Source: Candidatus Undinarchaeota archaeon (GTDB lineage Archaea; SpSt-1190; JASMDC01). From it: 64,000 nt of DNA. A model generated the notes under the pieces. It worked only from the letters and a program-made list of their open reading frames with translations. It was not told the DNA's origin and searched no databases. How positions within the stretch are numbered: the stretch's first letter is position 1; every line of letters starts with the position of its first letter. The position numbers were made by a program, and so were the translations under genes. Where the stretch lies: NCBI GenBank assembly GCA_964519305.1, contig CAZFHY010000010.1, forward strand, positions 32,001 through 96,000. Reading direction: 5' to 3'. This document shows, in pieces, positions 39,608 to 63,500 of this stretch.

Positions 39608-40164
39608 TATTTACCTCCCCCCTGTGCATTGAGGCCGTTCACCGAACCGACCACCATATCGACCACTTTGCTCGACGAGATGGTTGCTCCAGTGATCGTG
39701 TCGAACTGGCCCGCCCTCAACGGAGCCTTCTTCCCGGCGAACTGGCCCTTGAAGAAGTCCTCCTTGATACGCTCGCCCAAGCCCGGGGTCTCGAGGTGGT
39801 CGAGCACCTTGATACCGGTGACGGTGGCCTTATTGCCCCTCACATCGACACCGACGAGCAGCTTCATGGAGCCGCCGAATCCGATGCCCTCGACCTTCAT
39901 GGCGTATCCGGCCACCGTGTTGCCGATGTACCCGGCGTATACGGCACGGACACCCTCCTTCTCGGTCGAGATGAGCGCATGATCAGCGAGCTCTTCAAAG
40001 CGTTCCCCGGCAGGGAACACCTCCTTCTGAGCTATCTCGAGGGCCTTGCGCTGGTTCTCCTCGATGTACGGCTTGGTGGTGTCGTACACCATGGCCAGCG
40101 ACATGCCCGAGAGCAGGCACACGACAACCAGCGCTGCTGTCAGCTGTACGGTCTCGCTCACCAT
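39607..40164 (-). CDS. rnfG: Rnf complex subunit G
   Basis: GFGG, ETPGLG, FMN site DTITGATISS. Confidence 0.95.
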   Translation of the reverse strand: MVSETVQLTAALVVVCLLSGMSLAMVYDTTKPYIEENQRKALEIAQKEVFPAGERFEELADHALISTEKEGVRAVYAGYIGNTVAGYAMKVEGIGFGGSMKLLVGVDVRGNKATVTGIKVLDHLETPGLGERIKEDFFKGQFAGKKAPLRAGQFDTITGATISSSKVVDMVVGSVNGLNAQGGGK

Positions 40165-41234: not shown

Positions 41235-42550
41235 CCCCCCTTGCATGTCTTGGTGAACATGTTCTTTGCATGCTTGATCCAGTGCACCAGCGGGATGCGC
41301 GAGGGGCACGAGAAAGCGCACGAACCGCACTCGAAGCAGTCCATTGCATGCGCGTCCGCGGCCTCCTGGAACCGGTCCTTGCGCGCCAGTCGGGCGATGA
41401 GGCTCGGCATAAGGTACATGGGGCATGCGTCGACGCACCGGGCGCACTTGATGCAGGGACGTTCTGGTGAATCGTCGATGTCGGTCTCGATCTGGACGAG
41501 AACACCAGAGGAACCCTTGATGATAGGTATGTCGGTAGTGGTCTGGGCGATGCCCATCATGGGTCCGCCGCTGATGAGCTTCCTGATCGGACCTTTGGCG
41601 CCACCGCAGAGTTCGATGAGCTCTGCTGCCGAGGCACCGATGCGCACCACGATGTTCTTGGGCGTTCCGACAGCCCCGGTCACGGTGACCGCTCGCTCCA
41701 CCAATGGCTTCCCATCGTGGACCGCTTCGTGGATGGCCTTGCATGTGCCCACATTGGACACGACGCATCCCACGTCCATGGGGAGGCCACCGGTCGGTAC
41801 CTTTCGGCCGCTGGCGGCATAGATTAGCATCTTCTCGGCACCCTGGGGATACTTGACATCCATGGGCACGAGTTCGAAACCTGAGTATTCCTTCCGCTCG
41901 AGGAGCTCGGAGAACGCTTCGAGCGCGTCAGGCTTGTTATTCTCGATGCATACGTAGGCCTTATCGGCACCAACGGCGCGCCTGACGATATCGAATCCGG
42001 AGAGCACCTTCTCAACCATCTCGAGCATAAGGCAATGGTCGCAGGTGAGGAACGGTTCGCACTCAGCCCCGTTCAGGAACACCGCGTCGATGGGCTTGTC
42101 CTTTGGCGGGGACAGCTTCACGTGCGTTGGGAAGGCCGCACCTCCCAGACCGACGATTCCGGCGTTCTGGATGATGGACCTGAGCTCCTCGACGGTGAGC
42201 TTCCCGGTCTCCTCCTTGGAGCGTGTCTTAAGCTCCACCCATGTGTCCTCCCCATCGCCCTCGATGACGATTGCCGCGCTCCTTCCCTTGGCAGGATGGG
42301 GGTGATTCGCGATCTCCTTTACCGTACCGCTGATAGTAGCATGGATGGGTACGCTCACGAACCCTCCGGCCTCGGCGATAACCTGACCTACCTTGACTGT
42401 ATCGCCCTTTTCGACGATGGCTTTTGCCGGAGCACCGATGTGCTGGGAGAGCGGGAGCACCACCTGTGCGGGCAGAGGTGCTGTCTCGGCCGGCTTGGAG
42501 GCAGACAGTTTATTGTACCGGGGGTGAACACCGCCGATGAAAGTGGCCAT
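41231..42550 (-). CDS. rnfC: Rnf complex subunit C
   Basis: GGVHP; QHIGAPA; GIVGLGGAAFPTHVK; NGAECEPFLTCD; YPQGAEK; two [4Fe-4S] motifs. Confidence 0.97.
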   Translation of the reverse strand: MATFIGGVHPRYNKLSASKPAETAPLPAQVVLPLSQHIGAPAKAIVEKGDTVKVGQVIAEAGGFVSVPIHATISGTVKEIANHPHPAKGRSAAIVIEGDGEDTWVELKTRSKEETGKLTVEELRSIIQNAGIVGLGGAAFPTHVKLSPPKDKPIDAVFLNGAECEPFLTCDHCLMLEMVEKVLSGFDIVRRAVGADKAYVCIENNKPDALEAFSELLERKEYSGFELVPMDVKYPQGAEKMLIYAASGRKVPTGGLPMDVGCVVSNVGTCKAIHEAVHDGKPLVERAVTVTGAVGTPKNIVVRIGASAAELIELCGGAKGPIRKLISGGPMMGIAQTTTDIPIIKGSSGVLVQIETDIDDSPERPCIKCARCVDACPMYLMPSLIARLARKDRFQEAADAHAMDCFECGSCAFSCPSRIPLVHWIKHAKNMFTKTCKGG

Positions 42551-42574
42551 TGCGAGGTTCACAATGATAAGTTG

Positions 42575-42583
42575 TTATAAAAA
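42575..42583. promoter_or_regulatory. TATA element in the divergent rnfC/apbE gap
   Basis: TTATAAAAA ~25 nt from the rnfC ATG. Confidence 0.6.
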
Positions 42584-42638
42584 GTTACTTTTCTCCCAAG
42601 CACTTCCCGTCGGAGCGGGAACGAAGGAGTGTCTTGTC

Positions 42639-43625
42639 ATGGACCGCAAAGGAATGGTTGTAGCGCTCGTCCTGTCGGTCCTGCTGCTCCATGCCGGTTG
42701 CCAGCAGCCCCCCACCGAGATCGTGCGCAACGAGTCGCTCATGGGAACCATCGTGACCATCAAGGTGGTCCACACCGATGGTCAGGCGGCCAACGCCTCC
42801 ATCGACAAGGCCTTCGCCGAGATGCGGCGGATCGAAGCGCTGCTCACGAACACGGCAACCGATAGCGAGGTGTCCCGCCTTAATACGCAGGGGGAAGTTA
42901 AGCCAGCCAGCCCTGAGCTAATCCAGGTCTTGCGTCTCTCCGTTGAGGCCGGTGAGCTCTCGGGCGGTGCCTTCGACGTGACCGTCCAGCCGCTCCTCGA
43001 CCTCTACACCCACAGCTTCCGTGACCTCAAGCGCCCTCCCACCGGGGAAGAGATCAACACCACCCTCGAGGATGTCGACTACCGGAAGATCGAGGTCCAT
43101 GACGGATGGGCCGCTATTCCCACCAACATGTCGATCACGCTGGGCGGCATCGCGAAAGGATACATCATCGACGTCGCATTCCGTGTGCTCCAGGCCGACG
43201 GTATCGAGAACATCCTCGTCAACGCCGGAGGCGACATCCGGGCTCGGGGCAGCAACGCGCAGAGGCTACCATGGACGCTCGCCCTCCAGAACCCCCGAGA
43301 GGCCACCGATTACATCACGCGCATCCATGCGTCCGATGTTGCAGTGGCAACGAGCGGGGATTACGAGCGGTACTACGATGCTGAGAAGAAGTTCCACCAC
43401 ATCGTGAACCCCACGACCGGCTATTCCGCCCTCGGCCTCATCTCCGTGACCGTCATCGCCGACGAGGCGGTTCGCGCCGACTCCCTGGCAACGTCCGTTT
43501 TCGTGATGGGTAAGGACAAGGGGCTCACCCTCATCGATTCGCTGGAAGGTGTCGAAGCACTGGTCATCACCGAGGAGCGCGATGTGTTCCGCTCGAGCGG
43601 GTTCGCTTCCCACGAGCTGCCGTGA
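42639..43625 (+). CDS. apbE: FAD:protein FMN transferase
   Basis: Lipobox-like LHAG-C; MGT; GAFDVTV; LGGIAKGY; ATSGDYERY; HHIVNP.TG; ADSLAT. Confidence 0.95.
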   Translation: MDRKGMVVALVLSVLLLHAGCQQPPTEIVRNESLMGTIVTIKVVHTDGQAANASIDKAFAEMRRIEALLTNTATDSEVSRLNTQGEVKPASPELIQVLRLSVEAGELSGGAFDVTVQPLLDLYTHSFRDLKRPPTGEEINTTLEDVDYRKIEVHDGWAAIPTNMSITLGGIAKGYIIDVAFRVLQADGIENILVNAGGDIRARGSNAQRLPWTLALQNPREATDYITRIHASDVAVATSGDYERYYDAEKKFHHIVNPTTGYSALGLISVTVIADEAVRADSLATSVFVMGKDKGLTLIDSLEGVEALVITEERDVFRSSGFASHELP

Positions 43626-43629: not shown

Positions 43630-44052
43630 TCACCAGTTGTACTTGAAATAGTTGATATCCACGTGCAGGTCGCGGTCCTTCGCGTCCACGTGGAGGCCCG
43701 GCGTCTCATGTCCCCAAGGCCCGGGCCAGGACGAAGTGCTCGTCTCCACCATCCCACGTGATGCCAGTTCGTCAACGACCTTCTCTGCCGTCCGGTAGAT
43801 GTCCAGGAAGTGGTACTTCTCACCGTGTACGTACGGACCGAAGGACAGCACGCTCTCCTTGACCTTCTCCTCGAGGTCCACGAGTGTATCGTAGAGCTCT
43901 ATCTCGCTCTTATCTTCCAGATCCACCGTCAATTTGCCGTCTATGGACAGTCTCACATAGTCTTGGGCCAGAGGGTTCATTCTAGTCCGGAACAGCTCAT
44001 CCCACGAGTCGCCGTCGCCATTGGAGGCACTATCTACCGGATCACCATACAT
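43630..44052 (-). CDS. Hypothetical protein, tandem paralogue 3 of 3
   Basis: Shares ELYD.L..SV..Y.F..Y..EL..RG.V..GP(W/Y)G..DRDL.V with the next two ORFs. Confidence 0.8.
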   Translation of the reverse strand: MYGDPVDSASNGDGDSWDELFRTRMNPLAQDYVRLSIDGKLTVDLEDKSEIELYDTLVDLEEKVKESVLSFGPYVHGEKYHFLDIYRTAEKVVDELASRGMVETSTSSWPGPWGHETPGLHVDAKDRDLHVDINYFKYNW

Positions 44053-44107
44053 GAGTGGAGTGCCCTGGTTTAGGCGAGATTAAATACCTGCCCTTGGGAT
44101 TGTCGCC

Positions 44108-44449
44108 TCATCCCAGCGAGTGTACCTCGAACCAGTCCACGACCACATGAAGGTCACGGTCATGGGCATCGACGGCGTACCCGGGGATCGGGACGCCGTA
44201 CGGTCCCTTCCGAGGTGTGGTCTCCACATCGACCAGACCCCGCTCCTCAAGCTCACCGATCACTCGAACGGCCGTCTCGTAGACCTCCTGATATCGGTAC
44301 ACTGCTCCCTCGCACTGGGGCTGGCACCACATCACGCTCCGCTCGACCTTCTCAGAAAGGCCGATGAGCGCGTCATATAGCTGGATGTCTGACATATCTC
44401 CGGGATTCTCCAAATAGGAGCTCTCGAGCGGTACGACCTCTTGGACCAT
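44108..44449 (-). CDS. Hypothetical protein, tandem paralogue 2 of 3
   Basis: SDIQLYDAL..SV..YQEVY..ELEERGLVDVE..GPYG..DRDLHV. Confidence 0.8.
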   Translation of the reverse strand: MVQEVVPLESSYLENPGDMSDIQLYDALIGLSEKVERSVMWCQPQCEGAVYRYQEVYETAVRVIGELEERGLVDVETTPRKGPYGVPIPGYAVDAHDRDLHVVVDWFEVHSLG

Positions 44450-44474
44450 GGGTGGACCCTCCCGATCCTACTGC

Positions 44475-44810
44475 CTACGTCCGGTCGGCGAAGTAGTCGA
44501 TGTCCACCGCAAGGTCGCGGTCCTTCGCTTCTACGTGTAGTGCGAAGGTGGTCGAGCCGTACGGTCCGGGTCGCGGGGTGCGCTCAACGTCCACTAGTTC
44601 CCTGGTCTCCAGCTCTCCGACCAGCTTGTTGGTCGCGCCGTAGACCTCCTGGAAGTGGTAGACCGAGCCGCCTGCCCGCGGATTGAGCAGCATCACGCTC
44701 TGCTCCATGATGCCGGGAAGCTCGTTCAACATATCGAAGAGCTCGACGTCGCTGTAGGAGGTAAGATCTCCCGTGTACGCGGCGTCGAGGTGGAGGACCT
44801 CTTGGTACAT
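44475..44810 (-). CDS. Hypothetical protein, tandem paralogue 1 of 3
   Basis: SDVELFDML..SV..FQEVY..ELETRELVDVE..GPYG..DRDLAV; TTTATTAA upstream. Confidence 0.8.
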   Translation of the reverse strand: MYQEVLHLDAAYTGDLTSYSDVELFDMLNELPGIMEQSVMLLNPRAGGSVYHFQEVYGATNKLVGELETRELVDVERTPRPGPYGSTTFALHVEAKDRDLAVDIDYFADRT

Positions 44811-46957: not shown

Positions 46958-48658
46958 TTACTCGTCGTCCCAGAAGGTCTCGAGCTCGTCCGTTTTGTTG
47001 GTGACAACCCACTCGTTCGCCGAGACCTCTTCGAGGTGGTACCCGTTCTTGCCGAACCGGGATACCTCCACCTTGTCCTGGCCGTCATCCAGCTTCCAGA
47101 GCTCTTTCTCTCCCATGGCCTTGATGCTCTTGACCACGGGGATGAAGTCCTTGATGCGGCGCTTGTGGGTTAGGTCGACGGTCTCCTCTTCGGAGCCGTT
47201 GTGTTTGATGTACAGATCACCATCGTTGAAGGCGACGGAGTAGTGGTTGTCGTCCTCCCTGACGATCTTACCCTGTTCACCCTTGAACGACACTTCCCAA
47301 CCGGAGTCGAATATGTACCGGTCACCATCATGGATGAAGGCAGTGCCCTCGATGGTGGTCTTGACCTCGGGCTTCTCGTTGTAGAGCGAGAAGAGGAAGT
47401 TGGAACCCACCCAGAGGGCGGCGCCGGCGGCGGCCACAGGCACGCTTGAGACGGGCCAGGCCTTGGTGGCGGCCACAGTGCCCGAATAGGTACCAAGATA
47501 GATGCCGCTGCCGATGGACGACTCTACGCCCATGATCTGCCAGAAGTTCTCCGAGTAGTCGTCGTGCTCATGCTCCTTCTTGTTGATGAGCTGGTCGTGG
47601 ATGGCGATGTTGGCCTTGCCGCTCATGACACCGGAGATAGCGCTGGCCACGGTTGCCGCGCCGTATATACCGATGAACGCATAGCCGGGGTTCTCTCCGA
47701 AGCGCTTGAGGATGTCAGGGTGGAGGGCGAAGTAGCTGGCGCCGGTGACGGTGCCTAGTCCGGCCGTGTAGAGGTTGACCTTCTTTAGCGCCTCCATGGG
47801 CTTTTCGGAGTTGACGGCGTTGTCGACAACACTCCCCAGTACGCTCTCTCCGAGGATACTGAGCGCGGGGCTGCCGATGTTACCGATCGAGGTGATTGTG
47901 CTGGCGATACCGTAGGCGGCGCCCTGCTCCCACAGCTTGGGCGTGATGACGCCCAAGAGCATGGCAGCACCGACGTTCCCCATCAGGTCACCGACCTTCA
48001 GGACGGCGTACTCGGGATCCTCCTTGAACAGTCGGTAGAACACCTTGAACTTGTCCATGAAGGACTTCTCATCCATCTGGTACATCTCAAGGGAGAGGTC
48101 GTCAGGGATGCCAAAGAAGCTCTTGAAGTCCTCGTTGAAACCGAACTCCTCGAACTCCACGGTCTCTTTGAGGTTGAAGCCGTTCTCCTTGAGGTACTCC
48201 TTGAGGCCAGGATCAGCATCATCGGGGACCGGCAGTTTCTTGGTGCCGATCAGCGAGCCGAAGAACTTACCTTCGCCCCGTTCGGTGATGACCTCGGTGC
48301 GGTATGCCATGGCCGGGTGGAAGGCAGGGTCCTTGACGTCGTACGCCGTGAAGACAGCGTCCTTGCCGGCGGCCGCAGCGGCACGGTAGGCGTCCACATG
48401 GATGCCCTCCTCGTCGGTGTGGTACACCACGGAGAACCGCGCGCCATCGTACCCGGCGTTCACCAGATCGATGTACTGCTCCTCAATCCCGAAGTTGGCC
48501 TTCGCGAACTCGATATTGTTCGGGTTCAGTTGGAACTCGTCGTACTGCGTTCCCGCTACGAAGAGCGGGTTCGCATCGAGCTTGCGAGTAAAGATCTCAG
48601 AGGCAGTGTTGTTCTCCTCATGAAAATCCTCTTCGGAGAGGACTGCTGCATCATACAT
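46958..48658 (-). CDS. Hypothetical protein: soluble N-domain, multi-pass Gly/Ala-rich TM core, beta-rich C-domain
   Basis: Long ORF with several hydrophobic helices; start chosen ~26 nt after TTTTTTAAA. Confidence 0.75.
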   Translation of the reverse strand: MYDAAVLSEEDFHEENNTASEIFTRKLDANPLFVAGTQYDEFQLNPNNIEFAKANFGIEEQYIDLVNAGYDGARFSVVYHTDEEGIHVDAYRAAAAAGKDAVFTAYDVKDPAFHPAMAYRTEVITERGEGKFFGSLIGTKKLPVPDDADPGLKEYLKENGFNLKETVEFEEFGFNEDFKSFFGIPDDLSLEMYQMDEKSFMDKFKVFYRLFKEDPEYAVLKVGDLMGNVGAAMLLGVITPKLWEQGAAYGIASTITSIGNIGSPALSILGESVLGSVVDNAVNSEKPMEALKKVNLYTAGLGTVTGASYFALHPDILKRFGENPGYAFIGIYGAATVASAISGVMSGKANIAIHDQLINKKEHEHDDYSENFWQIMGVESSIGSGIYLGTYSGTVAATKAWPVSSVPVAAAGAALWVGSNFLFSLYNEKPEVKTTIEGTAFIHDGDRYIFDSGWEVSFKGEQGKIVREDDNHYSVAFNDGDLYIKHNGSEEETVDLTHKRRIKDFIPVVKSIKAMGEKELWKLDDGQDKVEVSRFGKNGYHLEEVSANEWVVTNKTDELETFWDDE

Positions 48659-48856
48659 GAAGGCCACGGGCACCATCGACGGTTTAAAAAAGGTTTTCCT
48701 ACGCGAACCGGAAAACTCGTGTGTCACTACCGCAGAGACACACCACAAATCGCGAAAAGGAAAGGCATTATCACCCGGAATAGGGTGGTTCGCGAATGTC
48801 CGGCCAGAACCGGAATAAGGTGTCACCCGCGAGTAGGAACAAAAGGGAGGGGATAT

Positions 48857-51319
48857 CTAGGCGGTCGCCTCAGCGCCCTCAGGCGCTCCCTCGCTCGACG
48901 TCTCATCCTCTTTCTTCGTGATCTGGAAGTGGAAGAGAGACCTCGTCGACTGCCAGCGGATCCCGCTCTGCATCCCCTGGTACATGTTGAACGCCTCGGT
49001 CTGGTACTCGATGAACGGGTCCTTCTGAGCATAGGCCCTAAGGTGTACACCGCGCTTCATCTCATCCATACCCAGGAGGTGGTCCTTCCACGACATGTCA
49101 GCAGAGTGCAGAAGGACCTGTCGCTCCACCTGTCGGATGACATCCGTCCCTATCTCGGCCTCGCGTTCGTGGTAGCGTCGCATGGCCTCGTTCGTGAGGT
49201 TCTCGGTCAGCTCGTCAGCGTTCTTGACCGAGGCCACGTTGAGGTCGGCCACGTCGATGCCGAAGAGCGCCTGACAGTTATACGCGAACTGCTTCTGAAG
49301 GAACTCGTTCTCCCACTGGTGGGGCTTGGGGCCCTCGGCGGCGAACGATTCCACGACCTCCTCTGCCGTCCGCTCGATGACGTTGTACACGTCCTGCTGC
49401 AGGTCAGGCCGCTCGAGGATGACGTTGCGGTCCTCGTAGAAGATCTCCCGCTGCGTGTTCATGACCTCGTCGTACTTCAGCAGGTTCTTGCGCATCTCGA
49501 AGTGCATGCCCTCGACCTTGACTTGGGCTTGTCGGACGACCTTGTCGATGAGCTTGCCCGACAGCGGCTCGTCCTTGTGGGCGCCTGAGAAGTACTTCTC
49601 CATGTTCTCCGGTCCGTAGAACCGTAGAAGTTCGTCCTCAGCGGACAGGTAGAACCGGCAGGAACCAGGATCTCCCTGGCGACCCTCGCGTCCCAGGAGC
49701 TGGTCGTCGATGCGACGCGAGTCGTGGCGCTCGGTGCCGATGACATGGAGACCTCCGATGTCGGCCACGCCTTCTCCGAGCTTGATGTCGGTACCGCGAC
49801 CGGCCATGTTAGTGGCGACGGTCACTGCACCCTTCTGCCCGGCCCGGCCAATTATGTCGGCCTCCTGCTTATGGTGTTTGGCGTGGAGCACCTGGTGGTC
49901 GATGCCGCGGGCGATGAGCATATCGCTCAGGTGCTCGGACACATCGATGGAACGGGTGCCAACGAGCACGGGGCGGCCTGCCTCGTGCTGGGCCACGATG
50001 TCGTCAACGATCGCGTCGTACTTCTCCTCGGCTGTGCGGTACACCAGGTCGGGCTGGATGTCCCGCTGCATGGGCTCGTTCGTCGGTATCTGGGAGACGT
50101 CCATGCCATAGAGGGAGATGAACTCGCCCTCCTCGGTCTTTGCGGTCCCGGTCATGCCCGAGACGCGGTCGTACATCCGGAAGAAGTTGGGGAACGTGAT
50201 GGAAGCGTAGGTCTGGGAAGGCTCGCGGACCTTCATTTCGGTCTTCCCGGTGGCTAGAAGGTCGTTGTTGGCCTCTTTCGCCTCCAGGGCCTCGTGCAGC
50301 CCGGCCTCGTACCGCCTGCCGTGCATGAGGCGACCGGTGAACTCGTCGACGATTAGCAGCTCACCGTCCGAGACTACGTAGTTCTTGTCCTTTGTGAAGA
50401 GCGAGTGGGCGGCGATGCACTGGCGTGCCGAGTGGTAGAGATGCATGGTCCGCTCGTCCGTGGGCGAGTCCACCCCGAGGGCCTTGGCCAGCTTGTCATC
50501 CCCGCGCTCCGTGAAGAATACGATATGGTCCTTCTCGTGCACCTCATAGTCGCGCCCGGGTTCGAAGTCGCGGACGATACGGTCCATGATGAGGTACTCG
50601 CGGGCAGAGGTGCCCGTGCGTCCAGAGATGATGAGAGGAGTTCTCCCCTCGTCGATGAGGATGGAGTCGACCTCGTCGATGATAGCATAATGCATGCCCC
50701 GCATGACCCGGTCCTCGGGCCGGCGGACCATGTTGTCTTTGAGATGGTCGAATCCGAACTCGTTGTTCGTCCCGTAGGTGATGTCCGACTGGTATGCCGC
50801 CCTGCGGTCCTCGGGGGACTGGTCGTGCTGGATGGTACCGACGGACATCCCCATGAACTCGTAGACCGGAGCCATCTCCTCGGCGTCGCGACCGGCCAGA
50901 TAATCGTTGGCGGTGATGACGTGGACGCCCTTTCCTTCCAATGCATGGAGGTACCCGGAGAGGGTCGCCACCAGTGTCTTGCCCTCACCGGTCTGCATCT
51001 CGGCGATGCGGCCCTCGTGGAGGATCACGCCGCCCTTGACCTGGACGTCGTAATGGCGCATCCCGGTCACGCGGCTGCTCGCCTCGCGCACAGCAGCATA
51101 GGCCTCGGGCATGAGGTCGTCCAGGCTCTCGCCCTCCGCGTATCTATCCCGGAACTCGTTGGTCTTGCCTGCGAGCTCCTCGTCCGAGAGTGCCGCCATC
51201 TCGTCAGCGTAACCGTTGACCTCATCGACGATGTCGTCCAGACGCCGCTGCTCGCGATGGCTGTAGGAGAAGAAGGACTTCACGCCGTCGTAGAATCGAT
51301 CGAGCAACCCGTCCTCCAT
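48857..51319 (-). CDS. secA: Preprotein translocase ATPase SecA
   Basis: AEMQTGEGKTL, DYLAGRD, YGTNNEFGFD, IDEVDSILIDE, IVDEFTGR, GMTGTA, ATNMAGRGTDI, RRIDDQL.GR.GRQGDPGS, YAQKDP; no C-terminal Zn-binding motif. Confidence 0.98.
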   Translation of the reverse strand: MEDGLLDRFYDGVKSFFSYSHREQRRLDDIVDEVNGYADEMAALSDEELAGKTNEFRDRYAEGESLDDLMPEAYAAVREASSRVTGMRHYDVQVKGGVILHEGRIAEMQTGEGKTLVATLSGYLHALEGKGVHVITANDYLAGRDAEEMAPVYEFMGMSVGTIQHDQSPEDRRAAYQSDITYGTNNEFGFDHLKDNMVRRPEDRVMRGMHYAIIDEVDSILIDEGRTPLIISGRTGTSAREYLIMDRIVRDFEPGRDYEVHEKDHIVFFTERGDDKLAKALGVDSPTDERTMHLYHSARQCIAAHSLFTKDKNYVVSDGELLIVDEFTGRLMHGRRYEAGLHEALEAKEANNDLLATGKTEMKVREPSQTYASITFPNFFRMYDRVSGMTGTAKTEEGEFISLYGMDVSQIPTNEPMQRDIQPDLVYRTAEEKYDAIVDDIVAQHEAGRPVLVGTRSIDVSEHLSDMLIARGIDHQVLHAKHHKQEADIIGRAGQKGAVTVATNMAGRGTDIKLGEGVADIGGLHVIGTERHDSRRIDDQLLGREGRQGDPGSCRFYLSAEDELLRFYGPENMEKYFSGAHKDEPLSGKLIDKVVRQAQVKVEGMHFEMRKNLLKYDEVMNTQREIFYEDRNVILERPDLQQDVYNVIERTAEEVVESFAAEGPKPHQWENEFLQKQFAYNCQALFGIDVADLNVASVKNADELTENLTNEAMRRYHEREAEIGTDVIRQVERQVLLHSADMSWKDHLLGMDEMKRGVHLRAYAQKDPFIEYQTEAFNMYQGMQSGIRWQSTRSLFHFQITKKEDETSSEGAPEGAEATA

Positions 51320-51345
51320 CAAGTTGGCCTCGGCCCCGTACGGCC

Positions 51346-51353
51346 TTAATAAA
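51346..51353 (-). promoter_or_regulatory. Archaeal BRE/TATA promoter of secA
   Basis: AGAAACC-TTTATTAA on the minus strand, ~27 nt upstream of ATG 51319. Confidence 0.7.
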
Positions 51354-51394
51354 GGTTTCTCTGCGGGGGACTGGAAAACGGCATACGTAGGTCC

Positions 51395-52018
51395 TCACCC
51401 CCCCAGAATCGGCTGGACGTCCGACACCTTATCGAACGCGTACCCACCATCCTCGGGGCCCCAGACCTGTTCGTCTCGCTCGTTGTAACCCCGGTCCCAG
51501 GCGTACATCCCGCTCTCGTCGATGACAAGCTCGGTCGTGGCGTACACGGCCCCGCCATAGCTGTTCTCGCACTCCTTGCCCCGGGTACCACCCACGAAGG
51601 CGTCGTTCTCCCGGTGGAGGTAGACGACGTTCCCGCGGAAGCCCTCCAGGTCATCGGTTGTGAGGTCGCGGGCCAGCCTACCGTCCTCCCATGTGCCGAC
51701 GAGCTCCTCGCCGTCCCGGATGCGGTAGATGTGGCTCTCGAGGGTACCGTCATCACCGGAAGTCAGCCGGTACGCCCGCTGACGGTAGGGGGAGCCCTCC
51801 ATTCCGGCCATGGCCTGCTCGACGTAGACCCAGTGGTCACTGTCGCTACCACCCTCTACCTCGATGGGGAGCATCTTGAGGCGGATGTCGTAGTAGCTGG
51901 GGTCCTTTTCGGACTGTCGCTGGCTGGAGAACTCGCCCGTCATCCACGCATGGAGCGTGTCGAGGTCGTTCCTCCCTTCGTTCACTTCAGGCACCATGGT
52001 CCCGATATTCCGTGCCAC
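51395..52018 (-). CDS. CpcT/CpeT chromophore-lyase-like protein
   Basis: WMTGEFSS..Q; WVYVEQA; PYRQR.Y; WDRGY..QVWG...GGYAF. Confidence 0.85.
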   Translation of the reverse strand: MARNIGTMVPEVNEGRNDLDTLHAWMTGEFSSQRQSEKDPSYYDIRLKMLPIEVEGGSDSDHWVYVEQAMAGMEGSPYRQRAYRLTSGDDGTLESHIYRIRDGEELVGTWEDGRLARDLTTDDLEGFRGNVVYLHRENDAFVGGTRGKECENSYGGAVYATTELVIDESGMYAWDRGYNERDEQVWGPEDGGYAFDKVSDVQPILGG

Positions 52019-52022
52019 TCGA

Positions 52023-52397
52023 TCAGAACCTTATCCTGAAGAGCGGGACCGCATGCGGGGCCCGGGGGTCGCTGTCCCACCTGTAGACTTCCAGGTCCAC
52101 GCCGGGCGACTCGCCCCTAGTGATATCGAGGTCCACTCCGATGCCCTCTTGTGGCATGTTGTCCATGTCGATCGTCTCGAGGTCGCTGGCATACACCGGG
52201 GCCTCGGCCTTCTCGACATAGGTGTTCGTCTCTTGCGTCATTACGCTCCCGGCCATGGCACCGACGCCCACCAGGAGACCGGCCGCAAGAGCACCTCCGG
52301 CCAGACCGTAGGTGGAAAGGTCGTCTGCCGCAGTATATCCGTCGGCCATCACCGCCGAGGCGGTTCCGGTCGTCTCAAGTTCTTCCATGTACATCAT
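52023..52397 (-). CDS. Hypothetical protein, ELE(T/S)xG-leader family
   Basis: SD GGAGTGA; acidic leader, Gly/Ala TM segment, ends VPLFRIRF. Confidence 0.7.
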   Translation of the reverse strand: MMYMEELETTGTASAVMADGYTAADDLSTYGLAGGALAAGLLVGVGAMAGSVMTQETNTYVEKAEAPVYASDLETIDMDNMPQEGIGVDLDITRGESPGVDLEVYRWDSDPRAPHAVPLFRIRF

Positions 52398-52440
52398 GAT
52401 CACTCCTTTCAGTTCTTACAGTATGATATCGTTCGCGGCC

Positions 52441-52980
52441 TCATCGGATACGGAAGTCGAATCCGGGGATACGGATCCGGATGTCAACATCGCTCTGCTC
52501 GTAGGAGGGGTGGCTGTCAGGGGCCAAAGGGTCCGAACCGAACCCGAGCTCGTCCATGTCGGTGTAGCCGTCGTGATCGGTGTCGAACCAGTTCGGGTCC
52601 GTACCGAGCTCCATGACCTCAACACGGTCACTGATGCCGTCAGCGTCGGAGTCCCATTCCAACGTGCTCGTCCTGTACACACTGAGCTCCTTCGAGTCAG
52701 CGAGGCCGTCGTTGTCCGCGTCGGGTACGCCCCGGGCGTAGTCCATGCTGTCGATGAGCCCATCGCCGTCAGTGTCGGCGCTGAAGGGGTTGTTCCCGGT
52801 GACGATATCCTTGGCGGTCGAGTAGCCATCCTTGTCGAAGTCTACCGCGAGCACACCCGTGAGGGCGCCCACGGCTCCCAGGAGGGCGAGCCCCCGACCG
52901 TCCATATCGTCCGTGCTGCTGTATGCGTCGGCGGCCGATGCGCCGTAGCTTCCGTTCGTCTCAAGCTCGTATGCGATCAT
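52441..52980 (-). CDS. Hypothetical protein, ELE(T/S)xG-leader family, with DxDxDG Ca-binding (thrombospondin-3-like) repeats
   Basis: DFDKDG, DTDGDG, DADNDG, DSDADG, DTDHDG each followed by xxDxxE-like residues; TATAAAAA upstream. Confidence 0.8.
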   Translation of the reverse strand: MIAYELETNGSYGASAADAYSSTDDMDGRGLALLGAVGALTGVLAVDFDKDGYSTAKDIVTGNNPFSADTDGDGLIDSMDYARGVPDADNDGLADSKELSVYRTSTLEWDSDADGISDRVEVMELGTDPNWFDTDHDGYTDMDELGFGSDPLAPDSHPSYEQSDVDIRIRIPGFDFRIR

Positions 52981-53026
52981 GTCCGGCCCTGCCCCTTGTC
53001 CCCTTTTTATACCTTTCTTTGGTATA

Positions 53027-53058
53027 CCTAATATATTGGGACTGCCTAATATATAGGG
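53027..53058. promoter_or_regulatory. Tandem quasi-palindromic operator CCTAATATAT(T/A)GGG x2
   Basis: 53027-53040 and 53045-53058, 13/14 identical, just upstream of the TATA of the 52980 gene. Confidence 0.6.
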
Positions 53059-53130
53059 CTCTGAGCACAGCTTACCGACATACACAGTAATGTTAGGGGA
53101 TACGAATACATGCAGAGCCGATGAACGGCA

Positions 53131-54102
53131 TCATGCGTCTTCGGAGAGGGCCCAGCACCGGTCGAAGTACTCGATGAGCACCGGGATCAGAACGTTGCCT
53201 GTGGAGCTATGCCACCAGGGAGCGTCGTCGCCAAGCTCCACATCGATGAACGGCAGGCCCTCGGCCTTGAAGGCCAGATCCCGAACACGCCCTTCGGCCA
53301 TCGAATCGCCTGAGATCACCAGCTCACCATCCCCCCATGAGACAGATGCCCGCTTGACGGGGAAGTCGATCTCAATGAAGGGGAGCACCGGACGCTTCTC
53401 CGCGATGTAATAGGTCGCCGAGGCGGGCTCGTGGATTTCGTTGTCGTATTTCACGTCGAATACCTCGGTCACCCTGCCCTTCGGCCCGCGATACAGGAAC
53501 GACATGGACATGTGCGAGTCGCCATCCCGATCCCTGAATAAGTGATGGAACTCGTGGACCGTGAAGGAACCCTTGGTATAGCTGGTCGCCCGTAGGGGGA
53601 CCGCTGGGTGATTCACCAGGTTCTGGACTAGGGGTACACCCAGAGCAGGATGGCGCTCAAGGCCTCGTGCCACTTTCTCCGGATCACGGAGCCGCCAGCG
53701 CGCATAGGATGGCTGGGCGGCGTGCCGCAGCTTGAATGTGACGTCGTAACCATATATCCCATCGGTCTCGTCGTCCACGGCGACCAGATAGTGATGATAG
53801 GGCGATGGGAACACGGTGCGCTCCTCGACCAGATATGCGTTCTCGATGCCCGCGGCCTTGGCGAGCGAGAGCCAGACCAGGGATTGCTCAAGGCAGTTCC
53901 CCTCGCCTTGGGCAACGCACTCTTCCACTGAGCGGAGCCGGTACGGATCATCTGTCTTCAGCAGCTCCTCGTAGCCGTATTGGACGTTCTCCAAGACCCA
54001 GTCGTAGATGATATCTGCCTTCTCCCCATCGTCCATGTCCTGTGTAACAAGGGATTCGATGATTGGTTTGACTGACTCGGGATCCAGGTACTGTCCGTCC
54101 AA
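53131..54102 (-). CDS. Transglutaminase-like cysteine protease domain protein
   Basis: IYDWV.ENVQY; GEGNCLEQS..L.KAAGI; HHY; YDVT (Cys-His-Asp). Confidence 0.8.
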   Translation of the reverse strand: MDGQYLDPESVKPIIESLVTQDMDDGEKADIIYDWVLENVQYGYEELLKTDDPYRLRSVEECVAQGEGNCLEQSLVWLSLAKAAGIENAYLVEERTVFPSPYHHYLVAVDDETDGIYGYDVTFKLRHAAQPSYARWRLRDPEKVARGLERHPALGVPLVQNLVNHPAVPLRATSYTKGSFTVHEFHHLFRDRDGDSHMSMSFLYRGPKGRVTEVFDVKYDNEIHEPASATYYIAEKRPVLPFIEIDFPVKRASVSWGDGELVISGDSMAEGRVRDLAFKAEGLPFIDVELGDDAPWWHSSTGNVLIPVLIEYFDRCWALSEDA

Positions 54103-54259
54103 GGCGGTCTTAAAAATTTAGGCGTGCTTAATAATATTCCCTTTGGACACGTCGACTGTGTTCTGGTGCTCAAGGAAAAGTTTAAGTATGCCTAACTTAG
54201 GTGGCCCTAACTCAAACCGCAAGGAACGCGGACCGGATGATTATCGAAGGTGATCTGAA

Positions 54260-54715
54260 ATGTTCGAAATGGAACTCGAGTCGGAAGGGTACGGTGCTAC
54301 CAACACCACGCAGGCCTATGGACAGGTGGATGACCTGAACCTCAGGGGTGCCGCCGTGGGTGCAGCTATCGGGGGTGCCGTCGGATTTGGCATGGCAGGC
54401 CTCGCCGGTTACGGCCTGGCAAACCACATCAGTGATCACTATCTTCAGGACGTCGGCCCTCTGCCGCAAGTGCTCCTTGAGGTGGACGCTACCATCGCCG
54501 GCCTCTACGTGCTCGGCGTGCCATTCGCTATCGGTGGCGCGCTGACCGCTGGTGCAGCCGGTGCTACCTCCACCCTATTCAGGGGCGAGGAGGAGGCACC
54601 TAACGATGGTGCGGCCTACGACTGGAACGGTGAGCAGGACCTCGACCGTGTCCCCCTCCGGCGCCAGGTACGGTACACGTATCCTCGCAGAGACGCGAAC
54701 GAACTGGACTGGTAA
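54260..54715 (+). CDS. Hypothetical membrane protein, ELE(T/S)xG-leader family
   Basis: SD AGGTGA; acidic leader; two Gly-zipper hydrophobic helices. Confidence 0.7.
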   Translation: MFEMELESEGYGATNTTQAYGQVDDLNLRGAAVGAAIGGAVGFGMAGLAGYGLANHISDHYLQDVGPLPQVLLEVDATIAGLYVLGVPFAIGGALTAGAAGATSTLFRGEEEAPNDGAAYDWNGEQDLDRVPLRRQVRYTYPRRDANELDW

Positions 54716-54725
54716 CGGGATACCT

Positions 54726-56279
54726 GTGTACGAGCCCGAAGGGGACGGACAGTTGGAGGAGAGGCCTGAGGACGGAGAGAATCCGGTCGGGCAAGTCCTT
54801 ACCTACCAGAACCCTATCGACTATACGGTCACACATGACCTATTATCGCAGGATCCCGCATACTGTATGATGACGTTCGAGATGTATCGGCCCCTGTCGG
54901 ACGCGCTGGGCTTCCCGATCGCCAGCGATATGACACTCAGTGCCACGTACCATCCTGATCCATATGATCCGCCCCCGGGACAATCCCTTACTTTCGACCG
55001 CGTCACCCTCGCTAAGAAGCCTGGGGCCGCATGGCTCACCCCTGTGGACCTGGACGGTGACGGGTACGACGAACTGGTGCTCTCCACCCTCTTCGAAGGG
55101 CTCGCAGTGGCCATCCCCCCTATCGGGAACGGAGGGGCGTACATACTCTCAAGAGATGGCGGAGCATCGACGGACGACTCCATCGGCCAGTGGTCGGTCG
55201 ATCCGCTCTTCACGCCCAAGGACGGGATCGGCTTCCCGAACAGTCCGGTCCTCATGGATGTGGACAACGACGGTGTGGAGGACATAGTGGTCCCGTGCGG
55301 TTTCCTCCTAAAACCAACCGGTCGGATCGTGTGGATGAAGGGCGAACCGGTCGACGGTCAGCTCACCTACGGCCCACCACAGGACATCCCCATCCCGGAC
55401 AGCTCCCGCTGGTACCATGCCATCGTACCGGCGGACCTCACCGGCAATGGCCGTATGGACTTCGTCACCACCAACCACGACGGAACGCTCCTATCCCCGG
55501 GCACCAGCAAGGTGGAATGGTTCGAGAACGTGGGCGGTCCTGGTGAGGCCAGGTTCGTCCACCACCATATCGCGGATAGGGGCGGATCCCACCTTGCCCT
55601 CTACGATATGACCGGTAATGGTAAACAGGACATCATCCTCCCCCAATACTTCGATGGCCCGTCGCTCATATGGCTCGAACAGCCCGATACTCCCGACAGT
55701 GACTGGAAGGAGCACGTCATCAACGACACCACCGGTAGAGGATTCGGGATCGAGGTCGTCGATATCGATGGTGACGGTAGACCGGAACTTGTCTACGGCA
55801 ACCACAACCACCAAGGTGCAGCCGATCCCGCTCACCGGACCATGGGTGTGTACTGGTTCGATATCCCCGCCCCCTCCGAGGTCCGCGACCTCAATAACTG
55901 GGACGACCATATGCATGTAGTCCATGAGGGTTTCCATGTCCGTGCCCGGGATCCCAATGCCAACGCCGCTCCAGGGGTCGTGCACGTGGGGGACGTCACC
56001 GGGAACGGTAGGATGGACATCACCGTGTCAGGTGACGGGGACGACGGGCTTTACATATTCACACAGCAGGACGACGGCACTTTCGAGAAGGTTGTTGTCG
56101 ATCGTCAGCCCATGTCCGGCGACCATCACCTGATGGACGTCAACGGGGATGGACGGATGGACGTGGTATGGACCGTGTTCGGGGAGGTCGGCCTCCGCGG
56201 CCCGCGTTCAATGGTGTACGCCTACATCCAGAAAGAGAACGGACAAGCAGACAATGAAAAGAGTAGTGACAAGGAGTGA
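54726..56279 (+). CDS. FG-GAP/VCBS repeat beta-propeller protein
   Basis: Seven DxxGxGxxD(L/I/F/V)-type repeats (DLDGDGYDEL, DVDNDGVEDI, DLTGNGRMDF...); GTG start inferred. Confidence 0.88.
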   Translation: MYEPEGDGQLEERPEDGENPVGQVLTYQNPIDYTVTHDLLSQDPAYCMMTFEMYRPLSDALGFPIASDMTLSATYHPDPYDPPPGQSLTFDRVTLAKKPGAAWLTPVDLDGDGYDELVLSTLFEGLAVAIPPIGNGGAYILSRDGGASTDDSIGQWSVDPLFTPKDGIGFPNSPVLMDVDNDGVEDIVVPCGFLLKPTGRIVWMKGEPVDGQLTYGPPQDIPIPDSSRWYHAIVPADLTGNGRMDFVTTNHDGTLLSPGTSKVEWFENVGGPGEARFVHHHIADRGGSHLALYDMTGNGKQDIILPQYFDGPSLIWLEQPDTPDSDWKEHVINDTTGRGFGIEVVDIDGDGRPELVYGNHNHQGAADPAHRTMGVYWFDIPAPSEVRDLNNWDDHMHVVHEGFHVRARDPNANAAPGVVHVGDVTGNGRMDITVSGDGDDGLYIFTQQDDGTFEKVVVDRQPMSGDHHLMDVNGDGRMDVVWTVFGEVGLRGPRSMVYAYIQKENGQADNEKSSDKE

Positions 56280-56282
56280 TAC

Positions 56283-57044
56283 ATGATGGAGACCGAAGAC
56301 ATGCTCACTAATGATACGAAAAAGACCGGGATTGACACACAAACGGTGTTGGGGGACCCTCGGGCGGCCAGGTTCGTGGAGGACCTTGTGCTGTACTCGA
56401 AGCACACGTTAGATCCATCATTGCTCGAGTTGGATGGAGGTTCGCGATCAGCAGAGGGCCTCCCGCCGGTCAACGAGAGCAACATCGTAGAGCTCATCGA
56501 GTTCTACCGCATGGACCCAGAGCGGGTTAACGGTTTCTTCGAATCCCTGTACGAGGCCCATGAGGGCGATCCGGATGCCCGGGGTTACCTCCACGCTGCG
56601 TACGGCATCGTGGGCGGGAAGGCCGGGCAGGTCGACCGGATAGAGATGCGGTACAAGGAAGGGGTTGAACAGCTGCTCCGTCAGTATGACAGCGAGCTCA
56701 CCGAGATCATCGACTGGATGGACAACATGGACAGCAGGAGCCCCTATCTCGGCCTGCTGACCGGTGTTAGCGCGAGCACTGTGTTCGGGTACATCACCGA
56801 TCATGGAGCGGGAGTGACCGCTGCCGTTGCCGCAGGTCTGGCCCTTGGAGGAACGCTCCTGGGATACATGATCCCCCACGCTTGGGGCAACCACCGCATA
56901 GCTGTCGGCTGGAAGCGCATCACGTCAGAGACCGAGCGAATCGACGGACAGTTCTGCGAGCGAAGAGAAGAGCTCTACGAGCGTGCCGTAGAGAACATCG
57001 GTCAACTCCGGGGCGAGTACGACCTCGAAGAGATTATCTGCTGA
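56283..57044 (+). CDS. Hypothetical helical protein with central TM hairpin
   Basis: SD GGAGTGA; two hydrophobic segments flanked by charged helices. Confidence 0.7.
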   Translation: MMETEDMLTNDTKKTGIDTQTVLGDPRAARFVEDLVLYSKHTLDPSLLELDGGSRSAEGLPPVNESNIVELIEFYRMDPERVNGFFESLYEAHEGDPDARGYLHAAYGIVGGKAGQVDRIEMRYKEGVEQLLRQYDSELTEIIDWMDNMDSRSPYLGLLTGVSASTVFGYITDHGAGVTAAVAAGLALGGTLLGYMIPHAWGNHRIAVGWKRITSETERIDGQFCERREELYERAVENIGQLRGEYDLEEIIC

Positions 57045-57050
57045 GCCGGC

Positions 57051-57854
57051 CTAGATGCCATCCCCTCTCTCGGCCTCCTTCAGCTTCTTGAAGTAGGTCC
57101 AGCTCGTCTCGTTGGGCGTTGTGAAGGTGTCAGGTGCGTGCTCGAACTTCGGCGCCTGTGCGCGCACTTCGTCCTTTATGCGCTGTGGGAGGTCCTCGAA
57201 GCCACATTCCAGCTTGTGGCCCCGACAGTGGTACACCAGCTGTCCTGGCCGATCGCCCATGCCCATCCAGGGCAGCCACTGTCCCGTCCGCGTCCAGCTG
57301 AACGTCATGGGTACGCTGTCCAAGTCATCGTTCTCCAGCTCGTCCTTTCGCACGATGAAGTTGAACAGCTCGGCCGACTCGTACATGTCGCTCTGGGCGT
57401 TGTCAGGGTACTCGTCGCGGGTGAGGGGCGAGGGATAGCGGAGGAACATCTCCGCATGCCAGGCGACGTCATCCCCCAGGTCTGTGGTGGGCACCTTGAA
57501 GTAGGTCTCTCCAAACTCCATGTTCACGGGATCGTTCCACACATGGACCACGTCCTCCCGCCGGCCGGTGTAGGGATTGCTCCACGTATCAAGGAGCTCA
57601 TCGGTGTGCGGATCGTAGTAGAAGGACACCTCGCGGGTGAGCAGCTGGTAGACGCCGTTCACCTTCTCGACGCGGGCGATGTTGTACCCCTCGAAGTGGA
57701 AGAGACGATCGGCTGTCATGTCAGGACGCTTGGCATAGACCTCACCCGACCAGTAGGTGACGACCTCGCTGCCGTCGAGAGATGCCCGTGTGCGCAGGAA
57801 GTCGTGGAGGTTCCCTGCTGAACCCTCAAGGTCATAGTGGTCCATCGCGTCCAT
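57051..57854 (-). CDS. DUF1838 family protein
   Basis: YWSGEVY; LF.FEGYN; REVSFYYDP.T.E.L..W.NPYTG; NDPVN; W.R...WLPWM.MGDRPG. Confidence 0.85.
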   Translation of the reverse strand: MDAMDHYDLEGSAGNLHDFLRTRASLDGSEVVTYWSGEVYAKRPDMTADRLFHFEGYNIARVEKVNGVYQLLTREVSFYYDPHTDELLDTWSNPYTGRREDVVHVWNDPVNMEFGETYFKVPTTDLGDDVAWHAEMFLRYPSPLTRDEYPDNAQSDMYESAELFNFIVRKDELENDDLDSVPMTFSWTRTGQWLPWMGMGDRPGQLVYHCRGHKLECGFEDLPQRIKDEVRAQAPKFEHAPDTFTTPNETSWTYFKKLKEAERGDGI

Positions 57855-57855
57855 C

Positions 57856-58671
57856 TCAGAGCAGTTCCTCGAGCGTTCGCGGCATGTCGTTCAGGAGGTC
57901 GTCCATACTGATGCTCTCCCAGGTCACCCGCTCGGCCACGTAGCCGTAACCGATGCCGTAAGCGTGGTACGACGCGTTCAGGGCCGTTGCGACCGCATCC
58001 ATATCGATCACACCACTGGCCAGCGTCTCGCGTGCGGCCATAAGCTCTCGCACCGCAGGACGTCGATCCCGCTCGCCCCATGCCAGACGCTCCTCGAAGG
58101 CAGTTTCGGCGAACTCGGCCCCTGCGGGTAGCTCCGTGGCGCGCGCCCGGAACATGTTGGTCGCCATGTACTCTGCCTGCCCCTCAAGTGCGGCGAGGAC
58201 AGGTACAGCATCGATGAGGGAGCGGATGTAGTCGCCATGGGTCTCGTCCCGTTGCCGGGCCAGCTCCTTCTGGAGCCCCGCGCCGATGAGCGCGCCGTGG
58301 TTCGCCTGGTAGGCATGGACGAGCTCGTGAGCGAGCACGTACACCAGCTCGCCATCCTGCTCAGGATCAGTGAGGTCCGGTGTTACGACACGGTCCGATA
58401 TGAGCACCCGGTGGTTCAGGTCGTCGTACATACCTTTGTTGCCATGGTAATGTACCGCGGCGTCATGGATGGTCGCCTCATCGGCCTCTACACCCAGGTG
58501 ATCGCAGATATCACGGGCCAATCCTTCATACACGGCAACATCGGCGATGACCACTTCCGGTAGCGGGCCGAAAGCGATCCCGAACTCATCCTCGTAAGCG
58601 GTGACTATGTCATCCATAAGCGAATCGTAGGCATCCACGACAGGACGCCCGTCCCTTTCAATGTCGTACAT
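57856..58671 (-). CDS. Zincin-like metallopeptidase
   Basis: AHELVHAYQ ... LEGQAEY (gluzincin-like) ... YGIGYGYV. Confidence 0.8.
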   Translation of the reverse strand: MYDIERDGRPVVDAYDSLMDDIVTAYEDEFGIAFGPLPEVVIADVAVYEGLARDICDHLGVEADEATIHDAAVHYHGNKGMYDDLNHRVLISDRVVTPDLTDPEQDGELVYVLAHELVHAYQANHGALIGAGLQKELARQRDETHGDYIRSLIDAVPVLAALEGQAEYMATNMFRARATELPAGAEFAETAFEERLAWGERDRRPAVRELMAARETLASGVIDMDAVATALNASYHAYGIGYGYVAERVTWESISMDDLLNDMPRTLEELL

Positions 58672-58740
58672 GTCGCAGGTAAATTTAGGCTTACCTTATA
58701 TTCGTTACTATTCTGTACAAGAATCGCTCCGGAAGATCCC

Positions 58741-63401: not shown

Positions 63402-63500
63402 CCGCCCATCACCACCGCGCATTCCTTTATAAAACGAAGGAGAGAGAACGCACGTCGGCCCCCCCTCTCCGTGTCCCCCTTCATCGTTAACCATTCATCA

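Follow-up and report, generated by a model that had tools for sequence, protein, structure and literature searches.

A duplicated canonical SecA in an archaeon with an archaeal protein-export channel

Introduction

Two groups of described SecA proteins are closest to the one reported here. The canonical bacterial SecA is represented by that of Bacillus subtilis (PDB 1m6n, 1tf2 and 3jv2, and, together with SecYE, 6itc and 7xha), and the SecA2 proteins of Gram-positive bacteria and mycobacteria are covered by the models TIGR03714, TIGR04397, NF012136 and TIGR04221 and by the structures 6sxh and 4uaq. Here we describe secA-1, a gene for a canonical SecA in a 64,000-nucleotide stretch of DNA from an Undinarchaeota archaeon (the window, positions 32001–96000 of contig C10 of the source genome, G000), together with a second copy elsewhere in the same genome, secA-2, and the orthologous gene in a sister genome of the same genus, G001.

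A first-pass annotation of this DNA, made from the letters alone, had called SecA canonically absent from archaea. Statements in reviews of 2010, 2018 and 2026 agree that archaea are without SecA, while a passage in a 2022 review calls the matter unclear, and the energy source of archaeal post-translational Sec export is given as unknown where reviews touch on it. Our full-text literature searches, supplementary files aside, turned up no paper that describes an archaeal SecA; a public database gives the protein the automatic label 'preprotein translocase subunit SecA [Candidatus Undinarchaeales archaeon]'.

Results

A canonical SecA encoded in the window

The gene lies on the reverse strand, at 80.9–83.3 kb of contig C10. 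Read as an open frame started at TTG, it covers 48857–51322 of the window and has 821 codons; started at the ATG one codon further in, it encodes the 820-residue protein P0001. The interval 48857–51353 first proposed for it extends too far: its end coordinate, 51353, is the distal end of a TATA-like box, and the coding sequence reaches to 51319. The features of gene and protein are as follows.

48857–51319, reverse strand: secA-1 coding sequence, 820 amino acids (P0001), ATG at 51319, alternative TTG at 51322
Residues 15–400: SecA_DEAD (PF07517), Pfam E-value 6.9e-120
Residues 239–346, inserted in NBD1: SecA_PP_bind, the preprotein cross-linking domain (PPXD; PF01043), Pfam E-value 1.3e-31
From residue 416: P-loop_SecA (PF21090), NBD2/IRA2, Pfam E-value 3.4e-67
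Residues 585–799: SecA_SW (PF07516), wing and scaffold with the two-helix finger, Pfam E-value 3.3e-57
50237–50269, reverse strand: lineage-specific insertion of 11 amino acids, approximately residues 351–361, located between the last PPXD helix and the stem strand returning to NBD1

P0001 has the domain order, length class, motor motifs, PPXD, scaffold and finger of canonical bacterial SecA. Its residues 16–788 align to B. subtilis SecA (3jv2, 1tf2 and 1m6n) with an E-value of about 6e-228, and the sole indel in this alignment is the 11-residue insertion, which follows the sequence 'EAKEA'. In our SecA alignment the insertion occurs in all three archaeal sequences and in one of 171 bacterial ones. 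The earlier description of a full-length SecA with intact ATPase motifs holds for the four SecA domains and for the presence of Walker A (GEGKT), DEVD, TGTAKTE, NMAGRGTDI and motif VI (GREGRQGD), with one deviation: the first arginine of 'QLRGR' in motif VI, found in 160 of 174 aligned SecAs, is a leucine in all three archaeal proteins. Across the 171 bacterial SecAs, 176 columns have a conservation of 90% or more; the archaeal trio retains 165 of them, among which are those of the motor motifs, the clamp and the two-helix finger. The tip of the finger is aromatic in both copies, with a tyrosine in secA-1 (LRAYAQKDP) and a phenylalanine in secA-2 (LRSFAQKDP).

Both proteins exceed the cut-offs of the two canonical SecA equivalog models, with 1000.7 bits for secA-1 and 977.3 bits for secA-2 against NF009538 (cut-off 814), and 932.5 and 920.4 bits, respectively, against TIGR00963 (cut-off 800). 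In contrast, secA-1 stays below all four curated NCBI models for SecA2 (TIGR04397, 854.6 bits for a cut-off of 1085; TIGR03714, 764.6 for 930; NF012136, 647.7 for 1100; TIGR04221, 579.4 for 725), as does secA-2. By these scores P0001 belongs to no curated SecA2 family. The Zn-binding tail had been described as absent at first pass, and indeed the SEC-C motif (PF02810) has no match in P0001, the tail of which is without a Cys/His motif. SEC-C is present in 116 of the 120 best database hits, and the four that lack it comprise both archaeal clusters and a further two proteins that are short or partial. The N-terminus of P0001 is acidic and extended, and neither a signal peptide nor a delivery domain was found in the protein. 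Judged by its sequence, P0001 belongs to the canonical SecA family: it has the defining features that were tested and is without the Zn tail that is common in the family, though not universal. It differs from canonical bacterial SecA in this missing tail, the insertion in the PPXD stem, the motif VI leucine, the acidic extended N-terminus, an identity of at most 53% to any bacterial SecA, and in coming from an archaeon with no channel other than archaeal SecYE-beta.

Archaeal context of the gene

The source genome is a metagenome-type assembly of 3.63 Mb in 42 contigs, estimated to be 99.8% complete and 4.3% contaminated; the sister genome G001 is in 120 contigs and is estimated to be 98% complete. 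The genus is placed with the Undinarchaeia by the classification tools. The 16S rRNA of G000 scores 1508 bits with the archaeal model and 1157 bits with the bacterial one, and region 2 of sigma-70 was found in neither of the two genomes, while it was matched in 10 of 10 bacterial controls. A halophile origin, which the GC content had suggested, was rejected: the predicted proteins contain on average 13.7% Asp and Glu versus 10.8% Lys and Arg, and the relatives are of the Undinarchaeia type.

To describe the gene content of C10 we used crude whole-genome gene calls and scanned the other 91 predicted proteins of this contig with Pfam. Between 3.7 and 27.4 kb it encodes PAC2, TFE-alpha, Trm1, MCM, aIF2-beta, two copies of aIF1A, RIO1, a KH/Krr1-like protein, subunits B and A of topoisomerase VI, DUF655, Rpb4/RpoF and ribosomal protein L21e. 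These archaeal core genes are 53–79 kb from secA-1 on the same 136-kb contig. The composition of the locus is typical of the genome: by tetranucleotide distance from the genome mean, the 10-kb segment with secA-1 ranks at the 33rd percentile of 344 segments, and among the 1379 genes of at least 300 codons, secA-1 is at the 90th percentile of codon score and the 94th percentile of GC content at third codon positions. The codon style is that of the genome, in agreement with the first-pass annotation, which had found it to match the neighbours.

G001 is an independent assembly, and its contig C41 runs collinear with the part of C10 between 70.7 and 129 kb, with a nucleotide identity of 77–89%. 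This stretch covers the Rnf genes, the M14 peptidase, P0123 (the membrane protein gene next to secA-1) and secA-1 itself. The exact P0001 sequence is found on 13 public contigs, the longest of 257,738 bp, and its 90% identity cluster has 8 members. secA-1 is a true gene of this archaeon, integrated in its chromosome, and encodes a canonical SecA of the SecA1 type.

Origin of the archaeal SecAs

In a database of 5.8 billion proteins, the sequences nearest to the archaeal clusters are bacterial SecAs of 50–53% identity, those with a name coming mostly from Clostridia, and no bacterial SecA in it is more than 53% identical to P0001; an exhaustive search of representatives gave best hits of 40–55% identity. 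Two trees were built with FastTree (LG+gamma, with Shimodaira–Hasegawa-like supports). The first has 144 sequences, namely the 3 archaeal SecAs, 12 database hits, 6 sequences from labelled loci and 123 of 150 representatives, the other 27 having been dropped as longer than 1150 residues. In the second, of 174 sequences, the phylum of genome G041 contributes another 30 SecAs.

All three archaeal SecAs fall into one clade with a support of 1.0, at the end of a long stem (0.44–0.47 substitutions per site). Its sister in both trees is a pair formed by the SecA of G041 (1082 residues) and the representative P0223, with supports of 0.80 and 0.89, so that the SecA phylogeny proposed at first pass places the archaeal copies together, next to an Eremiobacterota-like branch. 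The archaeal clade and the sister pair have in common a proline in place of the glutamine of 'TFQNYF', which is present in 98% of the 171 bacterial sequences, and a first position of motif VI that is not arginine (leucine in the archaea, lysine in the sister pair). Identity to the sister pair falls from about 53% in the N-terminal part to 36% in the C-terminal one, and the bacterial proteins are longer and lack the 11-residue insertion.

The ancestor of secA-1 and secA-2 came from Bacteria by horizontal transfer, in a single import that was followed by duplication inside the archaeal lineage; the Zn tail was lost and the insertion near the preprotein clamp was gained. As far as its sequence tells, the imported gene has also acquired archaeal promoter-like elements and the codon usage of the host. 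With moderate confidence, the nearest bacterial branch is an Eremiobacterota/Xenobia-like lineage, the phylum name being taken from source labels.

Second copy, selection and distribution

The second SecA of G000 is encoded on an 8-kb contig, C36. It is intact, 63% identical to secA-1 and also without a Zn tail, and its sequence is identical to that of a database cluster (P0003) that has 4 members, the longest of their contigs being 32.5 kb. The secA-1 orthologs of G000 and G001 have 92.5% amino acid identity, with a non-synonymous divergence (dN) of 0.037, a synonymous divergence (dS) of 0.49 and a dN/dS of 0.076: secA-1 is kept under strong purifying selection. Between secA-1 and secA-2 dN is 0.28 and dS is 0.85, and since these distances exceed those of the orthologs, the duplication must be much older than the split between G000 and G001.

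A search with P0001 covered 41 genomes, namely G000, another member of its genus, 15 members of its class and 24 genomes from other families, and gave full-length matches in G000 and G001 only. In a broader set of 401 archaeal genomes, from 139 families and 268 genera, a full-length SecA was found in two, both of this genus. The relatives in the class have genomes of 0.6–1.2 Mb, versus 3.6 Mb here. Weak matches to the helicase core (E-value about 6e-6) were observed at G007:C5:636-854 (L007) and G224:C3:345424-345828 (L069), in long open frames of 1461 and 849 residues; they could be ordinary DEAD-box helicases or divergent SecA-like modules.

Sec partners

Each of the two genomes has one SecY, and no second one was found in either.

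G000:C25:29880-31466 (L015 1297-2886), outside the window: SecY, 529 amino acids

This SecY matches that of Pyrococcus furiosus (3mp7) with an E-value of 1e-113, versus about 1e-7 for bacterial SecYs, passes the model NF006341, and is encoded in an operon L30-L15-SecY followed by L34e. Its identity to the SecYs of the class relatives is 51–57% for 14 of 15 (46% for the fragmentary G016), versus 36–54% for others, as measured on the first aligned piece. A bacterial-type SecYEG that might serve as SecA partner was found in neither G000 nor G001, and each genome's SecY is archaeal.

In bacteria, loops 6/7 and 8/9 of SecY contact SecA, according to a review passage on structure 3DIN. The first-pass annotation had suggested looking for bacterial-type contact loops in this SecY; none are seen, as both cytosolic loops have ordinary archaeal sequence, with no adaptation relative to 28 SecA-less archaea in an alignment of 30 SecYs. 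The SecYs of G000 and G001 do carry some 45–70 extra residues in the TM7/8 loop (between transmembrane helices 7 and 8) relative to the same 28 proteins, and some class relatives have a shorter insert. We rejected this as a sign of co-adaptation to SecA, since the extra residues are exoplasmic and not on the side that faces SecA; they are neutral with respect to SecA docking.

SecD and SecF were found in each of the five genomes searched (G000, G001 and three class relatives), and bacterial YidC (PF02096), SecB, a LepB-type S26 peptidase and LspA were found in none of the five. By these searches, SecA is the lone bacterial Sec part within an archaeal export apparatus, and the system differs from every characterised SecA system in having no bacterial SecYEG.

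Putative promoter and transcription unit

The elements around secA-1 that may govern its transcription are the following, where the two upstream elements are consensus matches only and the terminator function of the third is a prediction.

51346–51353, reverse strand: TATA-like box TTTATTAA, at −34 to −27 relative to the ATG
51354–51362, reverse strand: purine- and A-rich stretch AGAGAAACC, resembling a B recognition element (BRE), which adjoins the TATA-like box upstream and fits the genome-wide A-rich peak at −37 to −33
48838–48844, reverse strand: T-run TTTTGTT, similar to archaeal terminators, 13 nucleotides past the TAG stop

We surveyed the upstream regions of the 734 genes of the genome that start with ATG and have an upstream gap of at least 60 nucleotides. 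A is enriched at −37 to −33, followed by T/A at −31 to −25, and TATA-like hexamers are 3–7 times more common at −42 to −20 than at −100 to −60. An A/T run of 8 nucleotides within −40 to −20 occurs in 177 of the 734 genes, versus 43 for the control stretch, and a G-rich, Shine-Dalgarno-like signal is seen at −12 to −8. This pattern fits archaeal BRE/TATA promoters, with many leaders short or absent. The predicted box of secA-1 lies about 3 nucleotides farther out than the genome-wide mode, and the BRE/TATA about 27 nucleotides upstream that had been noticed at first pass agrees with this enrichment. The 75 nucleotides upstream of secA-1 differ at a single position between G000 and G001, though the genes farther upstream differ, and in secA-2 the sequence TTAAAAAA is found 26 nucleotides ahead of the first possible start, which is the same spacing as in secA-1.

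With its own TATA-like box and a T-run after the stop codon, secA-1 looks monocistronic and not part of an operon of the surrounding island. An operon of secA with the downstream gene P0123 was considered and rejected: the gap of 31 nucleotides between the two arises only from the longest-frame call, and the likely start of P0123, at 48658, has a TATA-like run of its own.

Neighbouring genes

The gene downstream of secA-1 encodes a protein with no Pfam family at E-values of 0.01 or below and no Foldseek match in the PDB at 0.001 or below.

46958–48658, reverse strand: P0123, membrane protein of about 566–572 amino acids; TATA-like run at 48683–48691, 25–33 nucleotides before the likely start

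Its AlphaFold model (mean predicted local distance difference test score, pLDDT, of 80.4) has an alpha/beta N-domain, six long helices and a beta-rich C-domain. We found 28 relatives of P0123, with 43–93% identity, and those with a name come from assemblies labelled Eremiobacterota, Vulcanimicrobiota, Xenobia or 'Armatimonadetes'. One relative is in G041, and in the phylum of G041 they occur in 6 of 61 sampled genomes, all of 5.7–9.1 Mb. Because these relatives are of the Eremiobacterota type, they provide an independent pointer to the same kind of donor as for secA. Transfer of secA and P0123 as one block was rejected, as in six of six bacterial genomes the P0123 relative lies off every SecA contig; the donors of the two genes were probably of one kind all the same.

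The small neighbouring proteins near secA-1 have no Pfam family. Directly upstream of secA-1, at 51397–58738, is a 7.3-kb block that is missing from this place in G001, with genes for a CpeT/CpcT-family protein, a TSP3_bac-repeat protein, a transglutaminase-like protein, an FG-GAP protein, a DUF1838 protein and a possible metallopeptidase. Beyond it, from 58741 to 64000 on the reverse strand and extending past the window, are genes for proteins of 609, 976, 1318 and 1883 residues with signal-peptide-like N-termini, the largest with an M23 domain alone. Giant genes are also present at the other end of the window (3–16757, forward strand), for proteins of 2224, 2015 and 1505 residues with N-termini of the same kind, and the 2015-residue protein has M23 with NlpC/P60.

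A complete Rnf-type cluster (RnfB, A, E, G, D and C-like) with the flavin transferase ApbE occupies 37471–43625 and is syntenic in G001. Between ApbE and the M14 peptidase, at 43630–44810 on the reverse strand, are three tandem small acidic paralogs of 140, 113 and 111 residues, which have an N-terminal motif 'E/D-hydrophobic-x-L-Y/F-D-x-L' and no Pfam family. At 26960–28366 on the forward strand is a gene for a 468-residue protein with a lectin-type Laminin_G_3 domain, and its N-terminal signal is presumably an archaeal class III (prepilin-like) one. Outside the window, five clostripain-family (Peptidase_C11) paralogs of about 493–515 residues are encoded within some 7.5 kb (G000:C10:110490-117932; L011, L012), four of them adjacent and the fifth about 1.4 kb further on, and a sixth, of 549 residues, is about 3.5 kb from this group.

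Discussion

We propose that SecA docks on archaeal SecYE-beta in this organism and drives post-translational export, being an old bacterial import that was duplicated and domesticated, and we assign this reading a probability of roughly 0.55. In the cytoplasm, SecA would bind preproteins that bear a signal peptide, and it would dock from the cytosolic side on archaeal SecYE-beta, the one channel of the cell. Cycles of ATP use by the DEAD-like motor, together with the two-helix finger, would then push the unfolded chains through the channel, with the archaeal SecDF assisting on the outside. The outcome would be an ATP-driven, post-translational export route, which could serve an unusually large load of giant secreted or surface proteins.

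Elements such as the two-helix finger would matter only for pushing a chain into SecY. Since the finger and similar parts are conserved, and are needed only for this step, docking on archaeal SecYE-beta is the simplest reading. The codon usage of secA-1 resembles that of a well-expressed gene. Possible clients are the 112 predicted proteins of at least 1000 residues (55 with 1500 or more, 29 with 2000 or more and the largest with 8378, all from crude gene calls), 90 of which have an N-terminal signal or anchor-like segment by a crude hydrophobicity rule. secA-1 is itself flanked by giant genes of this kind, among them those of the 2015-residue protein (M23 and NlpC/P60) and of the 1883-residue protein (M23).

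Several points weigh against this proposal. To our knowledge, activity of a SecA with a Sec61-type or an archaeal channel is without precedent, and the SecA-facing loops of this SecY are those of archaea that have no SecA. The leucine in motif VI departs from the arginine of most SecAs. secA-2 was not found in the G001 assembly, and in G000 it is on a short contig of 8 kb. The 15 class relatives, as well as 399 of the 401 archaeal genomes, manage without SecA. The assignment of the donor rests on supports of 0.80–0.89 and a long stem (0.47), in trees from which 27 of the 150 representatives were left out, and the set of possible clients is only as good as the crude gene calls and the crude rule behind it.

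The competitor that deserves most attention, though we consider it unlikely, is that SecA is functional but does not act through SecY, being instead a holdase or targeting factor, in the cytosol or on the ribosome, that handles very long secretory chains, or acting with another membrane partner. The unchanged cytosolic loops of SecY, the failure to find any bacterial Sec partner in the genomes searched, the loss of the Zn tail, the altered, acidic N-terminus and the fact that other archaea secrete without SecA would all be accommodated by such a role. A mere holdase, however, would be expected to lose the parts that are needed only for pushing into SecY, and these (the finger with its aromatic tip, the PPXD clamp and the scaffold helix) are conserved under strong constraint. 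Less likely still is a division of labour as between SecA1 and SecA2, with one general motor and one for dedicated substrates, such as the giant surface proteins or hydrolases clustered around secA-1; this would be compatible with docking on SecYE-beta. It has in its favour that the paralogs are old and intact (63% identical, dN 0.28), and that secA-1 stands among genes for peptidases and for giant proteins with signal peptides. The SecA2 proteins likewise come as two SecA paralogs per genome and have no Zn tail, but the archaeal paralogs pass the canonical models and fail the four SecA2 models, arose by duplication inside the archaeal lineage, and are accompanied by neither SecY2 nor accessory Sec genes. 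Moreover, secA-1 appears monocistronic, and its neighbourhood is only partly conserved, with the 7.3-kb block just upstream missing there in G001. The SecA2-like accessory motor that the first-pass annotation had named as one of its two options is not borne out as stated, given canonical cut-offs passed, SecA2 models failed, a single SecY and a gene that looks monocistronic, although the two paralogs leave room for some division of labour.

Two further explanations have very little probability. A bacterial gene brought in by a chimeric assembly or by misbinning might be suspected from a metagenome-type assembly of 42 contigs with 4.3% estimated contamination, and from the many neighbours of bacterial-looking families (Rnf, CpeT, TSP3_bac, M23). 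Misassembly or misbinning is nevertheless very unlikely, and this explanation is largely refuted: C10 carries archaeal core genes and has a typical composition, sigma-70 was not found in G000 or G001, the synteny and the promoter element are conserved in G001, an identical protein is encoded by 13 public contigs, the longest of 258 kb, and no bacterial SecA in the database is more than 53% identical. The misassembly with bacterial DNA, or bacterial contig, of which the first-pass annotation had warned is thus contradicted by the data. Even more improbable is its suggestion of a protein acting on the SecYEG of a bacterial host, that is, an effector delivered into the host cell, which found no support. 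The genome is classed with DPANN-type symbionts, and giant proteins with M23 and NlpC/P60 domains suggest contact with bacteria. Yet P0001 shows neither a signal peptide nor a delivery domain, secA-1 is codon-adapted to the high degree usual for a housekeeping gene, and the genome is of 3.6 Mb; in addition, SecA would need to enter the cytoplasm of a host that already has a SecA of its own.

Docking of SecA on the archaeal channel may be taken one step further, to a natural hybrid translocase in which a domesticated bacterial SecA works on a Sec61-type channel and was recruited, and later duplicated, to export an exceptional set of giant surface proteins in a 3.6-Mb relative of the Undinarchaeia with their tiny genomes. 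We hold this fuller version tentatively, at somewhat below even odds; it would be the first such pairing known. If it is true, the recognition between SecA and its channel would be far more permissive than assumed, and this archaeon would offer a tractable model for what powers archaeal post-translational secretion.

A canonical SecA that is native, duplicated and strongly constrained in an archaeon with only an archaeal channel raises the question of whether SecA can drive a Sec61-type channel, and of which features of SecA and SecY docking really requires. It also offers a clean example of the fixation of a core 'bacteria-only' machine in an archaeon, and it adds to the signs that much bacterial envelope biology has been taken up by this large-genome, DPANN-type lineage.

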